DNA from: Phycisphaeraceae bacterium
GTDB taxonomy: Bacteria > Planctomycetota > Phycisphaerae > Phycisphaerales > Phycisphaeraceae
Assembly: GCA_965230305.1 (NCBI GenBank)
Contig: OZ245998.1
Coordinates: 808,132 to 872,131 of the forward strand
DNA: 64,000 nt
Direction of reading: 5' to 3'
The translations under genes were made by a program, and so were the position numbers. Positions 6,420 through 16,449 of this stretch are shown here, piece by piece. Under the pieces are notes generated by a model. That model searched no databases, was not told where the DNA came from, and saw only the letters and a list, made by a program, of their open reading frames with translations. How positions within the stretch are numbered: the first letter of the stretch is position 1; the number at the start of each line of letters is the position of its first letter.

Positions 6420-6650
6420 ACACCGATAAATCGAATCGCTCTACCCTGGCGCCTACGGAGAACCCCTAGGCTAGCAGTCGAAAACCCAGGAATCCTTGGC
6501 GCAAACACAGGTTTAACCGACAAATTTCTGGTAGATGGGACATAGCCCATAGGCTTTAACTCGCAACCGGCATGCCGTTGCATCCCAAATCCTCAGCACG
6601 TTGAACATCGTTTCGTGCCAAGACAAATCAATCCCCTTGCGTATCTTCTT
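6420..6650 (-). pseudogene. Degraded fragment resembling the 3' end of the RHS core (orphan/displaced cassette remnant)
   Basis: Exact 17-mer cagcacgttgaacatcg at 6594..6610 equals 8404..8420 inside RHS-B. The - strand translation GIDLSWHETMFNVLRIWDATACRLRVKAYGLCPIYQK parallels RHS-B AAHDAMFNVLGVFKGDG..ERYEYTPYGQRK. After a frame change, PRIPGFSTASLGVL parallels PRNPVGFQGLIHD. Broken by stops at 6513 and 6651. Confidence 0.4.
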
Positions 6651-6772
6651 TCAAAAGAACCTCCGCAGGCAATCATGAATTAGTCCTGCATCCTTCGACC
6701 AAACACGCCGCGAAACGAAACATTCGTGGCTCGCCCAGAACACGAGACTGATCCGTATTTGACTAGGAACAG

Positions 6773-7186
6773 TTAAAATATGATTCCATCAGGGGCTTTG
6801 ATTGCCTCAAAAACCACAAATTCATCTGCACCGCCACCACGCACTAGCCATACATGGATCGTATAACCACTCGACTGCCATGTCGCATAACGAACTTCGG
6901 TATGCTCGTCAACCAAGACTTCCTCCTTCAACCCCCCAATCACATTTGCATGCGATTCACCATCCAAATTCGGATGATTTGATAAAATAAAATAGTCACC
7001 CTTTGAATCAGGCGCACCAAGCAAGCCAACCATTTGGCCCCAAGACAATCCATAGTACGCAGAAACACTCACGGGCCGATGCGAGGCTGGCGATCGAACG
7101 CAAAAGCCAACAAACAAAACCAGCAAAACACTCGTTAAACAAAATCCAGCCCAACTCCAAATTATATATTTATTTTGTATCGCCAT
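6773..7186 (-). CDS. Small membrane-anchored protein, candidate immunity protein for the RHS-B metallopeptidase tip
   Basis: 137 aa with N-terminal TM/signal anchor (IIWSWAGFCLTSVLLVLFVGFCV). Starts 8 nt after the RHS-B stop on the same strand. AT-richer composition like the toxin tip. No family recognised. Confidence 0.55.
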   Translation of the reverse strand: MAIQNKYIIWSWAGFCLTSVLLVLFVGFCVRSPASHRPVSVSAYYGLSWGQMVGLLGAPDSKGDYFILSNHPNLDGESHANVIGGLKEEVLVDEHTEVRYATWQSSGYTIHVWLVRGGGADEFVVFEAIKAPDGIIF

Positions 7187-7194
7187 ACAAAATG

Positions 7195-14600: not shown

Positions 14601-15622
14601 GAAAACGACGACGCCGACAGCCGTACCCGGCCTGCGCCGTAAGGCCCGTTGCTCCCGCTCTGCATCCCCAGGTTCACGTCCAGCTCGAATTCGCCATCAT
14701 CCCCCAACGACGCGCTCGCCTCACCGCCGGTTCCTTCGCCACAGGTCGAGCATGACGAACAACACCCCGCTCCCAATTCGCCTGGCTCGCCGGTACGCTC
14801 TTCGATGCCTTGGGTCGAAATCGATGATTCAAACCGAGAAACACCAGTTGACGAATTGGTGTGGGTGCTAGTCATAACGTAACGAACCGATGTTTCTTCG
14901 TGTGTAGGCTTGCCCGCGGAGGGTCTAGTCAAAACGTAAACACTAGTAATGTCAGGATCTATATGCGTATGCGTTTCCCAATATGGGCTTGACGACGGAC
15001 TAGTACCCGGACCTGAGCCAAAAATCGCCAATAAATCAGCTCCTTGTGGCGTCCCAACCAACGCATCATCTTCGTATAGAATCCAGCCGACTCCGTCGAT
15101 ATCTTCCGGCCCGAAGACCTCATCATCTCCGGGGTCAACCGCGTAACGCCATTCCCACTCGAGCCCATCGAACCGAACCTGAATATACAGGTCATGGGAA
15201 ATCATAAATGGATCCGTTTCCAAATCTTCACAACCAAACTCTCCGCCCCAGTGGAACTCTTCAAGAGTTGTACTTGCGCCCCATATGCCGCACCCTAAGT
15301 ATTCGAGCTCCGTTTCCAAAGTCGATCGGGCTCGCAAATCAAAGTCCTGCTCATCGTAGCAATAGATATAACTTTCTTCTTCCCTCTTAATCGTAACAGT
15401 CGACCCTTCTTCAATACTGAACCGGTCGTAACCAGCAAAGCAACAGGCGTCGTTCTCGCCTGGGTCCGGCTTATCTTCAAAGCCCTCCGCACCAAACGGC
15501 ACCAACGACATGCCGCCGGGTTGCGCTGAGGCAGAACCCAATCCCACGCCGCCAAGAGAACACACCAGCACCGACAGAAGCAACCATTCACAACCGGTCA
15601 ACTGCTTGAACCACTGTATCAT
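11660..15622 (-). CDS. RHS/YD-repeat protein A (N-terminal unique domain plus YD repeats; no core end, no toxin tip)
   Basis: Leader CEWLLLSVLVCSLGGVGLGSASAQP. AT-richer unique N-terminal region with Cys cluster GAGCCSSCSTCGEG. Then YD repeats: YDAAGRVETVV, YDLAGRTTSVEDALGN, YDWAGRQTAARVY, YDVLGRQVRSEDASGN, YDAYGRTERQLV, YDDSGRTITTAFYD. Ends WYDDAGRATHTADYGDTSP* with no PxxxxDPxGL motif. Confidence 0.85.
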   Translation of the reverse strand: MIQWFKQLTGCEWLLLSVLVCSLGGVGLGSASAQPGGMSLVPFGAEGFEDKPDPGENDACCFAGYDRFSIEEGSTVTIKREEESYIYCYDEQDFDLRARSTLETELEYLGCGIWGASTTLEEFHWGGEFGCEDLETDPFMISHDLYIQVRFDGLEWEWRYAVDPGDDEVFGPEDIDGVGWILYEDDALVGTPQGADLLAIFGSGPGTSPSSSPYWETHTHIDPDITSVYVLTRPSAGKPTHEETSVRYVMTSTHTNSSTGVSRFESSISTQGIEERTGEPGELGAGCCSSCSTCGEGTGGEASASLGDDGEFELDVNLGMQSGSNGPYGAGRVRLSASSFSSALTDPASLELISGLEYLTTKVTRNATTGVLEEVDGSYSDLKVATITGGFALEFRTNGAPGTDEPYALIEVTSPGADRLLVVKSEGVGGATAPTVTETWEFVYSSVSGVDSWEMARGVDATNGGVATADSREKVERETLGNGDIQITRAVMEADGTVVSEDERTYRAVGGEERVVEYVIDPSGAALTRTWTYYGDGDGVTSSEAHYGYLKSYVSETGYWEHYLYNTEGEMEKLIRQHGSNDYLPANLTTLESNNQAVIRTEHEDLDLDRTGYPAQVTAVEMQEVVQGTVERTSYEIIWPEPDSDVVTDWYLENWAVACAEADPAATNHSGDVEAYLDALATDVLAGTTVPERVTRTYRHQRGNQIYANRLYQVIAPDGRLTQYEYPTIRQRVRYSGYPGAWRQTTTDLDSQGQTESTLVEYSTDSDLATATWFEVSEVVHSNKDSKNRYQTTSYSFGGDPAAYTTSMTYGCCGVEDRTDREGVVASFVYDDLKRTIASTRFDGDTNGFEITTYTTYDAAGRVETVVQDPTDVTGSITTRTMTYDLAGRTTSVEDALGNMMFYTYRDVETDGDAYVSGARYHERRVYPHDKASGPIQVTWTDSHGRVVRQFVATTTAADWNGSAPTGSEALTEQGRSVAVYDWAGRQTAARVYHTLPGIAQAGSSSDYYESTFEYDVLGRQVRSEDASGNVSISIYDDETGRMIQQWVGTDSTGWTTSDPSNGGAGGNNMVMVSQMYYDTNRDGTGDLRDYATRVETLKPLATLGTVDDYTHLDTDRLLDANGMTVRTMPEVGPWSEQVSDHQGRMLESSAIKNGNTTFDWYLSQTTYQYDSSKPWRMIATRQQEVNPATGALVGNYIETTYGFDAVARRFMTTSPSGAVSATLYDAYGRTERQLVTSGDIGVVGDPTDDVVISETEFGYDDSGRTITTAFYDRLHDAGSTTGLLSLPANSSLMRPRYTATWYDDAGRATHTADYGDTSP

Positions 15623-15681
15623 CGATCTGCACCTTAAAAGATTAATTAAGCGATTCGACTAGTAACATTTAAATACAATTT

Positions 15682-16449
15682 TTAGCGGCCATTGAATCCA
15701 GCAGACCGAACCGGCTGGCGCTGTAATTCACGAGGCATCCGCATGACCGAAGCCTCTGCAGTCCGGACGCCGCGTGCCCGTTGAGCGACGTCTTCTGCCA
15801 GCTGTTGGCGTTGGGCGGTGCTGGTCGTGCCGTGGCGCTGGCGCTCCACGCCGGACAAGTTCGTCCGTGGGCCGGCATGGGCCCGAGCCCGCTGAGGGCC
15901 TAGCACGCGTTCCGCCGACTGACCGATCCGCGAGGCGACCCGAGCACGCTCCGCCTGAGCAGACGCCAGTTGCTCCTCCAAACGCGGGATCCTGCGGACT
16001 ACCGATTCATCACGCGGCCCCACCGAGATCTGCCGCTGCGCTTCACGCAGGGCCCGCAATGCGTCTACTTCGGCCTGCTCGGCTTGGGCCAACGCTACAC
16101 GATGCGTTTCGTATGAAGCCACCAAGGCTTCGAGCGCCGCCTCGGTCTGCTCGGGGGAGGCCTCCATGTCCGCCAGATCGGCATTGGTCATCCTCAAACC
16201 CCGGCGGAGCTCCTGCACTTTTTCATACGTCGCCAAGTCCATCGGTTCCGGCGCAGCCAACTCGCGGGCCTGCGCTTGATCGACCTGTTTGGACTGGTAC
16301 TGCAGCGCAGCCCCCAAACCCAATGCCGCTATCGCCGTTGCTGCGGCCACCGCGCCCATCAAGCCGGCTCCTCGACGACGCACAGCCTCTTGAAAACGGG
16401 TTGCGTGCCCCGCGTGTGAACGATGTAATCCCGCATCATCTTTGCGCAT
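15682..16449 (-). CDS. Membrane-anchored coiled-coil protein, first gene of the RHS operon (function unknown)
   Basis: Single TM (LMGAVAAATAIAALGLGAALQY) followed by a long Ala/Glu/Gln/Arg-rich heptad-like region. Lies 59 nt upstream of RHS-A on the same strand. No family recognised. Confidence 0.45.
   Translation of the reverse strand: MRKDDAGLHRSHAGHATRFQEAVRRRGAGLMGAVAAATAIAALGLGAALQYQSKQVDQAQARELAAPEPMDLATYEKVQELRRGLRMTNADLADMEASPEQTEAALEALVASYETHRVALAQAEQAEVDALRALREAQRQISVGPRDESVVRRIPRLEEQLASAQAERARVASRIGQSAERVLGPQRARAHAGPRTNLSGVERQRHGTTSTAQRQQLAEDVAQRARGVRTAEASVMRMPRELQRQPVRSAGFNGR

Follow-up and report, generated by a model that had tools for sequence, protein, structure and literature searches.

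A two-gene form of the RHS polymorphic toxin capsule, with a predicted Sec leader on each chain and genetic linkage to a type II secretion operon, in Planctomycetota

RHS capsules are known either as single chains, as in the Rhs proteins of type VI secretion systems (T6SS), WapA and the teneurins, or as the TcB/TcC pair, which is assembled in the cytoplasm. A 64,000-nt stretch of DNA from a Phycisphaeraceae bacterium (GenBank assembly GCA_965230305.1, contig OZ245998.1, positions 808,132 to 872,131; hereafter the window) raises the question of whether two RHS chains, each with its own export signal, can be the halves of one capsule, and by which route such a capsule would leave the cell. As the original prediction for this DNA had claimed, the window carries two co-oriented YD-repeat open reading frames (ORFs) 109 nt apart. 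ORF A (11660..15622, minus strand, ATG start) encodes 1320 aa and ORF B (7195..11550, minus strand, GTG start) encodes 1451 aa. Both were intact in the ORF map and lie in different frames, with the stop codon of A at 11660-11662 and the GTG of B at 11550, preceded at a distance of 6 nt by a GGAG Shine-Dalgarno sequence. No other ORF of the window exceeds 1000 aa. The gene callers behind a public collection also call A, B (including its GTG start) and a smaller upstream gene, CC. Judged from sequence and predicted structure, the locus is a genuine conserved two-gene form of the RHS polymorphic toxin capsule, doubly targeted to Sec and linked to a type II secretion system (T2SS); its assembly and secretion we infer.

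Relatives of both chains were collected. An exhaustive HMMER search with A aa 121-1320 returned 694 relatives, while a word-indexed search returned A alone. About 180 relatives were found for B, nearly all annotated as RHS proteins of Planctomycetota, and the family as a whole is mainly from this phylum, mostly from Phycisphaerae. The closest B relatives fell into two length classes, one of ~2430-2460 aa (P0004 of strain ZRK34, P0010 and P0011) and one of ~1430-1535 aa (P0005, P0006, P0007 and P0012); fused single-chain relatives span 2400-3000 aa. In BLASTP alignments, A 410-1317 matched P0004 194-1070 and B 25-1183 matched P0004 1075-2229, so that the window proteins are tiled along the fused protein with no gap or overlap. 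A is not a decaying duplicate of B. The identity between the window proteins and their fused relatives was 31-38%. These alignments indicate that A corresponds to the N-terminal and B to the C-terminal half of the single 2400-3000-aa protein of the relatives. The whole shell does not come from one polypeptide here; it is encoded by two ORFs, and the split is kept in relatives.

The position of the break was then defined at the residue level. In fused proteins the junction reads DYGTNGGAAFTRP (in a longer form, ...WYDNAHRPIATADYGNNGGAAFTRPASAP..VLVT..YD..GR), with the loop sequence DYG-TNGGAA-FTRP. Chain A stops at ...ATWYDDAGRATHTADYGDTSP (also written ...YTATWYDDAGRATHTADYGDTSP), and chain B opens with VKHLPILTCASSFGLALLACSPSMAFTRP... 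(also written VKHLPILTCASSFGLALLACSPSMAFTRPSTPP...), its YD motifs restarting at aa 45. By a regular-expression survey, 26 fused proteins contain the junction landmark; 21 A-type chains have their stop shortly past DYG. Among the best HMMER matches, about 20 cluster representatives proved to be stand-alone A chains, aligned up to their own last residues and ending in ...ATWYDDA[HG]R[PV]THxADYGxxxP followed by the stop codon. The break lies in a variable surface loop between two YD hairpins. In two fused loci (L018 and L019) the loop is much longer, showing that the junction is a length-variable linker. It was also observed that the stand-alone A chains (P0123-P0174; in the window, 11663..11680) end 3-12 residues past DYG, the final residue being proline in about 13 of 20.

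Besides the window, at least seven split loci were identified (L001, L002, L007, L008, L010, L020 and L021), each with its own leader on B, and A is directly upstream of B in all eight. Across independent assemblies with a protein identity of just 31-38%, recurrence of the break and its leader is more than coincidence. In L001, from a Phycisphaeraceae metagenome-assembled genome, A ends with ...AEYGTNDGATGAPPSP and B follows 86 nt on with a leader and AFSRP. In L002, the end of A (...ADYGEAP) is followed by 108 nt, an AGGAG Shine-Dalgarno sequence, a GTG start and a leader. L007 and L008 are two loci of Poriferisphaera sp. WC338. Fused genes were found in L003, L004, L005, L006, L009, L011, L013, L014, L018 and L019, and a metagenome scan yielded just two further loci, both fused. 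Since proteins of the split and fused loci share only 30-40% identity, the split is an ancient state kept by selection. When the N-terminal shell of B was placed in a neighbour-joining tree, split and fused forms were mixed on long, unsupported branches; this tree, which is not robust, suggests repeated fission or fusion. The proposed search for fused and split orthologues in related genomes thus found both.

In the B-type relatives a hydrophobic leader is followed directly by the second half of the junction motif, [GA]F[TS]RP. The cleavage sites (marked by a slash) read PSMA/FTRP in the window, SAWG/FTRP in P0005, PSLG/FTRP in P0006, GGWA/FSRP in P0007 and DAFG/FTRP in P0012, and AWA/FVRP, AYG/FNRP and VYG/VNRP in further relatives. 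Small residues occupy positions -3 and -1 in each of the first five of these leaders, fitting signal peptidase I (SPase I). Mature B is predicted to begin at FTRP, the exact point at which the fused chain continues. B had been described as opening with its own lipobox-like leader; the leader is conserved across the family, and the lipobox is not. B as a lipoprotein was considered and tentatively set aside, given that the cysteine is present in only some chains (window, P0006 and P0012) and the SPase-I site in all. The A leader, MIQWFKQLTGCEWLLLSVLVCSLGGVGLGSASA/Q (then PGG), has a mean Kyte-Doolittle hydropathy of 2.3 over 12 residues and an AxA site, and most complete A-type and fused relatives also carry N-terminal hydrophobic leaders, with 12-residue hydropathy maxima of 2-3.5. 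Both chains are therefore predicted Sec substrates.

The shells of the two chains were modeled with AlphaFold2 (AF2), and model quality was assessed by the predicted local distance difference test (pLDDT). The model of A aa 121-1320 had an overall pLDDT of 76.8. Residues 121-297 were unstructured (pLDDT <50), and aa 298-1320 formed ~1020 residues of beta-hairpins with pLDDT mostly 80-93, the last hairpin being complete and confident. In Foldseek searches of the PDB, the A model matched Rhs, teneurin and TcB-TcC shells with E-values of 8e-25 to 1e-18 and template-modeling (TM) scores of 0.16-0.33, with no specific likeness to TcB (TM 0.15 to the TcB chain 4igl_A). No SpvB or TcdB-mid (TcdB_toxin_midN/midC) domain was found by Pfam in A or in 27 A relatives. 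PF05593 was matched by 20 of 27 A-family members, and A itself has no Pfam match. Conserved YGCCG and CxxC motifs were noticed in A.

For B aa 26-1200, modeled from a 40-sequence alignment, the pLDDT was 78.5 and the predicted TM score 0.84. The model consists, in order, of a low-confidence flexible linker, hairpins up to ~aa 505, a low-confidence hinge, two beta-sandwiches (~aa 560-885), and more hairpins with the core. Its N-terminal shell, with pLDDT mostly 80-96, matched the Pfam RHS_repeat family (PF05593) with an E-value of 2e-9 and is colinear with what follows 'DYGNNGGAAFTRP' in fused P0004. The beta-sandwich insert is also present in close relatives, some of which score GH115_C or Laminin_G_3 there. 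Against TIGR03696 (Rhs_assc_core) B reached 22.8 bits, under the 32.5-bit cut-off. T6SS Rhs cores, teneurins and TcB-TcC were matched by Foldseek with E-values of 1e-26 to 1e-15. Globally, the model fitted best to the TcC chains of YenC2 (4igl_B/D, target-normalized TM score, TMt, 0.52-0.54), followed by 5kis_B and 6l7i_G (0.42-0.45); TcdB2-TccC3 gave a query-normalized score (TMq) of 0.30-0.35, and closed T6SS Rhs cocoons gave only 0.14-0.27. The likeness to the split TcB/TcC shell that had been proposed for the two chains holds for B, which superposes best on TcC chains, but not for A, which lacks the SpvB and TcdB-mid domains.

B carries the motifs GRFMQRDP at aa 1141, DPYGL at aa 1169 and HEIGHLLGLGH at aa 1386, the core motifs occurring only in B. 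A motif search for DPxGL, GRFxxxDP and HExxH found none of them in A, bearing out the view that A has neither a core-end motif nor a toxin tip. The zinc motif of the tip is of the metzincin type (HExxHxxGxxH), with sub-threshold matches to Matrixin (E 0.0018) and MMP-12 (E 0.009) around it; no homologue of the tip was found at E<=1e-3 among 5.8e9 proteins. The GC content at third codon positions (GC3) stays at 0.84-0.90 through B as far as the core; precisely at DPYGL (nt 8046) it drops from 0.90 to 0.49, and the low-GC block extends for ~1.8 kb, down to ~6250, taking in a 137-aa ORF. Because of this GC3 break and the low-GC block, the tip was regarded as a foreign, swapped cassette. Pfam and other family-library searches gave no match for the 137-aa ORF, which is a candidate immunity gene from its position. 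By composition and order, the tip and this ORF bear the classic signature of a swapped Rhs tip/immunity cassette.

Some observations were made on tips and cassettes elsewhere. Between the candidate immunity gene and the DUF1573 gene of the window, ~550 nt of low GC (6222..6772; 0.41-0.51) contain no ORF >=60 aa and may be the leftover of an older tip/immunity cassette or the edge of the acquired block. Downstream of B in L002, three orphan Rhs core+tip ORFs of 439, 400 and 443 aa (5227-5889, 7059-7880 and 8997-9731) were found, as in classical rhs loci. The B chains of the two Poriferisphaera loci (L007 11091-14642; L008, same coordinates; 1183 aa) end inside the Rhs core (...NRARIYNPADSNFIMRDSGVK) with no DPxGL and no tip, and the fused JD969 protein P0010 (L004 10001-17389) also ends inside the core with neither. 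These three would be capsules without cargo, or with cargo encoded elsewhere.

The N-terminal ~300 residues of A appear to be a second variable, swappable and probably binding module. Their GC3 is 0.52, versus 0.79 in the rest of A; the module could not be aligned to relatives, BLASTP alignments beginning at aa 288-410; and LamG or PA14 domains were among the matches of A relatives.

In the neighboring gsp genes, Pfam recognized Secretin/Secretin_N/GspD_N0, T2SSE, T2SSF, T2SSG and four N_methyl domains, with T2SSC and GspL_C under their cut-offs, in agreement with the full T2SS operon that had been predicted to diverge from the transmembrane ORF CC. In about 10 of 15 informative loci, gspD/E/F orthologues with 39-61% identity to those of the window lie <=10 kb from the RHS gene. 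They are divergent to it in the window, L001, L006, L010, L011 and L021, downstream and co-directional in L013, and convergent in L005; L022 has the secretin only, and L007 possibly has gspE/F-like genes. Persistence of the adjacency through three gene orders at such divergence argues for functional linkage. The T2SS adjacency, which had been singled out for a synteny check, is thus conserved well beyond the window, in split and fused loci alike. The linkage is common to fused forms too and is a property of the whole family, so it cannot be given as the reason for the split. It was further observed that the gspFED / CC / fused-RHS arrangement of L006 (JANQEO010000196.1) is filed under 'Candidatus Binatia' instead of Planctomycetota; either misbinning or horizontal transfer of the entire module could account for this.

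CC, at the head of the RHS operon, has one N-terminal hydrophobic/transmembrane segment, and its helical remainder is predicted to face the periplasm. Searches of Pfam, PHROG and PDB profiles gave no match for it. Its homologues directly precede the RHS gene in L001, L005, L006, L011, L013 and L022; in L010, L020 and L021 they separate A from B. CC stays with the RHS gene even in L005, which has gsp on the opposite side, and in L020, which lacks it, and is therefore an accessory of the RHS system and not a part of the T2SS.

From these data we propose a two-gene, Sec-dependent RHS polymorphic toxin family of Planctomycetota, in which a two-chain shell forms in the periplasm and is then handed to the T2SS; we consider this reading somewhat probable. 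Both chains would cross the inner membrane unfolded via Sec and lose their leaders, B then beginning at FTRP. A and B would fold in the periplasm and join edge-to-edge into one TcB/TcC-like beta-shell of ~1750 shell residues, enclosing the metzincin-like tip, which would be cut free at DPYGL. CC, and possibly the Ig-like DUF1573 protein, would help folding, assembly or targeting. Passage of the chains or the complex over the outer membrane, for release or surface display, would fall to the neighboring T2SS, and the membrane-anchored 137-aa ORF product would guard the periplasm of the producer. The models fit this scheme in that A ends in a confident hairpin and B starts with a low-confidence linker before its first hairpin. 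At ~140-155 kDa, each chain is comparable in size to the largest T2SS cargo known; the fused proteins are beyond that range. Exit is probably by the T2SS.

The adjacency of the two ORFs, the position of the break within a repeat protein and the frame past the A stop, which is open for 137 codons, could suggest a pseudogenising lesion (nonsense or frameshift), an error of assembly, or expression as one product through programmed readthrough or frameshifting. We give this almost no chance. The same break is present in at least seven independent assemblies, each with a spacer, a Shine-Dalgarno sequence and a B signal peptide; both window ORFs are intact and host-like in GC3; and a leader inside a readthrough product would make no sense. 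The stop-to-start offsets of 112, 89 and 111 nt (window, L001 and L002) show no consistent relation of frame, ruling out programmed recoding, and a second in-frame stop is present in L002. Pseudogene, readthrough and frameshift were therefore rejected on the offsets, the second stop and the conserved B leader, in line with the original prediction, which had argued against a simple nonsense-split pseudogene. An improbable but more serious alternative is that A and B are independent exported proteins, B being a self-closing smaller RHS toxin with the beta-sandwiches as plug and A a toxin-less adhesin or scaffold. Each chain has its own leader and ribosome-binding site, B possesses the core motifs, the tip and ~765 shell residues, and the variable lectin-like N-terminal modules of A relatives suggest adhesion. 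Moreover, the spacer contains a very stable 13-bp hairpin (8 G-C pairs and a tetraloop, then TTTGGTT), the top terminator-like site within 6000-17000, which could uncouple expression. However, this hairpin is not conserved: as a conserved attenuator it was rejected, because in L001, L002, L007 and L010 the sequence between the genes is no more stably folded than its shuffled versions, and the hairpin is specific to the window at best. Independence is also at odds with the strict colinearity of A and B with single fused proteins, with the invariant A-then-B order and identical break point in distant lineages, and with the B model, for which open half-shells of TcC are a much better match than the closed cocoons of Rhs proteins or teneurins.

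It is possible, though we rather doubt it, that the two-chain capsule is real and the T2SS adjacency is inherited synteny, the toxin being periplasmic, surface-bound, or released by lysis, vesicles or another route. Five loci have no T2SS within 10 kb (L003, L004, L008, L014 and L020), and the loci come from one bacterial class, so that the adjacency may be ancestral. The closest analogue in structure, the Tc toxins, leave the cell by lysis (PMC10847048). On the other hand, the adjacency survives three gene orders at ~33% RHS and 39-47% GspD identity, both chains, as predicted Sec substrates of a diderm, have what entry into the T2SS requires, and Bcn-A, discussed below, shows that an RHS-family toxin can depend on a T2SS secretin. 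Several further points weigh against the scheme of a periplasmic two-chain shell exported by the T2SS. The size of an assembled capsule speaks against passage through the secretin, and a capsule or fused protein of 260-330 kDa is larger than any known T2SS cargo. The adjacency is no commoner in split (4-5 of 7) than in fused (5 of 8) loci, and its counts are not independent, the loci sharing ancestry. We infer the single shared closed cocoon from colinearity and shape rather than show it, and the shell of B alone, with its two inserted domains, is close in size to the teneurin YD shell, so that by size B could close by itself. The leaders of A, B and their relatives were judged by eye (n/h/c regions), hydropathy and conservation; the role of CC, which has no recognizable family, is a guess; and with L007, L008 and P0010 lacking a tip, the family may not always be a toxin.

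How far the system departs from known ones depends on the comparison. With TcB/TcC (TcdB2-TccC3 and YenB/YenC2) it shares a two-polypeptide RHS/YD shell, a C-terminal chain with the motifs of the core aspartyl protease and a hypervariable toxin, a comparable number of shell residues and the existence of fused forms (natural or engineered for TcB/TcC). It differs in that A and its 27 relatives lack the SpvB/TcdB-mid beta-propeller domains, the window has no TcA gene, the C-terminal chain has two inserted beta-sandwiches, and the neighbors are a T2SS and an exported helical accessory. The window chains also have Sec signal peptides, whereas Tc subunits fold in the cytoplasm without leaders and are freed by lysis (PMC10847048). 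Sec-dependent single-chain RHS/WapA-type toxins, including P0004, P0010 and P0011, share the signal peptide, YD repeats, core motifs, swappable tip, downstream immunity candidate and lectin-like modules, and orphan core+tip cassettes occur in L002; in the window the shell comes from two genes, each with a leader, and the gsp operon is physically linked. The T6SS Rhs effectors (RhsA, RhsP, Tse5, Tse15 and Salmonella bongori Rhs) share the YD shell fold, with the strongest Foldseek E-values (1e-26 to 1e-22), and the DPxGL autoproteolysis motif; they differ in that each is one chain closing a single cocoon of ~1000 residues, lacks a signal peptide and has an N-terminus linked to PAAR or VgrG, and the global TM to them is 0.14-0.31.

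The Sec/T2SS route had been put forward as not the textbook one for RHS toxins, yet it is less unprecedented than that. In the 2012 catalogue of Zhang et al., RHS toxins with a signal peptide, among them planctomycete examples and some with metallopeptidase tips, were classed as 'T2SS', a label that there denoted just the possession of a signal peptide for the general secretory pathway (PMC3482391). In Xanthomonas perforans, the RHS-family bacteriocin Bcn-A (1398 aa) is present in supernatants, and its extracellular activity disappears when xpsD is mutated; small accessory ORFs, one of them encoding a signal peptide, are required, and an inner-membrane location is predicted for the immunity protein (PMC7259588). 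Bcn-A thus resembles the present system as an RHS-family toxin of a diderm with accessory ORFs, inner-membrane immunity and, shown for Bcn-A, dependence on a T2SS secretin, a likeness at the level of description. It differs in being a single chain and is not reported beside the xps operon (PMC7259588). In the literature searched, no non-Tc RHS protein split into two leader-bearing chains was described, no RHS gene syntenic with a gsp operon, no CC family and nothing on RHS in Phycisphaerae.

Table 1. Features of the RHS locus and its neighbors in the window (a slash marks a predicted cleavage site)
Feature	Position	Strand	Description
Neighbor triad	4347..6221	-	DUF1573 Ig-like exported protein 5361-6221; rhodanese 4799-5368; MauE/DoxX membrane protein 4347-4826; Pfam
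Candidate immunity protein	6773..7186	-	137 aa, N-terminal transmembrane segment or signal-anchor, GC3 0.40, directly after tip
Toxin tip	7195..8031	-	B aa 1174-1451; Pro-rich linker, then metzincin-like HEIGHLLGLGH domain
B C-terminal shell and putative Rhs-associated core	8032..8895	-	aa 886-1173
B insert, two beta-sandwich domains	8896..9993	-	about aa 520-885; AF2 secondary structure and pLDDT
B N-terminal RHS shell	10036..11475	-	aa 26-505; flexible FTRPSTPP... linker, then YD hairpins
B signal peptide	11476..11550	-	aa 1-25; SPase-I site SMA/FTRP conserved; alternative lipobox LLAC (Cys20) not conserved
A-B intergenic spacer	11551..11659	-	13-bp hairpin with weak T-run 11642..11613; GGAG Shine-Dalgarno 11560..11557
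A RHS/YD shell segment	11663..14731	-	aa 298-1320, tail ...ADYGDTSP
A variable N-terminal module	14732..15523	-	aa 34-297; Cys-rich CCSSCSTC at aa 287-294
A signal peptide	15524..15622	-	aa 1-33; predicted cleavage ASA/Q, from sequence features
CC accessory protein	15682..16449	-	255 aa, N-terminal signal-anchor; heads RHS operon, 59 nt upstream of A
T2SS operon	16734..26336	+	Pfam; divergent, 284 nt from CC
gspD	16734-18965	+	
gspE	18962-20677	+	
gspF	20679-21887	+	
gspG	within 21694-22302	+	
Three minor pseudopilins	22299-23698	+	
ORF	23689-24528	+	no Pfam match
gspC-like	24532-25014	+	
gspL-like	25011-26336	+	
Next ORFs	26333-26887; 26894-27484	+	

The surroundings of the locus were also surveyed (Table 1). 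The GC3 of both the A and B ORFs is host-like. Among the other large window ORFs scanned, which are housekeeping ones (LeuRS, DnaB, flagellar proteins, DXS, GH2 and MFS), no T6SS or TcA-type product was found, the small ORFs not being exhaustively scanned; within that scope, the claim that such genes are missing from the window was upheld. The nearby LeuRS, DnaB and DXS genes place the RHS/T2SS locus in the core chromosome. At 36000..43300 (minus strand), a flagellin, FlgK and a flagellin-N-like 651-aa ORF indicate that the host is a flagellated planctomycete. In strain ZRK34 (L003 and L011; CP050848.1, 978-1038 kb), at least three genes of the RHS family were observed in ~60 kb, one of them directly beside gspDEF, and integrase and Tad-pilus genes adjoin the other RHS genes, an arrangement suggestive of an RHS island with its anchor at the T2SS locus.

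Downstream of the RHS genes of the window is a triad of DUF1573, rhodanese and MauE/DoxX genes. The triad, whole or in part, is also beside the RHS gene in L002 (11001-12768), L005 (5985-7505), L008 (5734-6466 and 14739-15125) and L020 (2-1462), and in part in L001, L003, L004, L011 and L022. One possible role is that of a periplasmic chaperone or thiol/disulfide module serving the Cys-containing RHS chains. A wider and more tentative proposal, which we think rather unlikely, is a dedicated RHS export system of Phycisphaerae. Two Sec-translocated half-shells would fold and dock only in the periplasm; CC, maybe with the DUF1573 protein as chaperone and MauE/rhodanese as thiol module, would guide the assembly; the product would be passed to the co-inherited T2SS; and, at one permissive loop, the chain would have been split or rejoined on several occasions. 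If true, this would be a mode of assembly and a route across the outer membrane not described for any RHS or Tc capsule.

The two halves with their Sec leaders imply that a toxin-enclosing shell would be assembled after translocation, which constrains models of cocoon folding and cargo loading. The break, in the loop between DYG and FTRP, is a permissive site for the engineering of split RHS containers. Two cultured carriers, Poriferisphaera sp. WC338 with split genes and strain ZRK34 with fused ones, form a natural pair for comparison. Moreover, the linkage to gsp genes and an accessory gene offers a testable answer to how the signal-peptide RHS toxins of diderms may cross the outer membrane, a step for which experimental work has so far been limited to Bcn-A.

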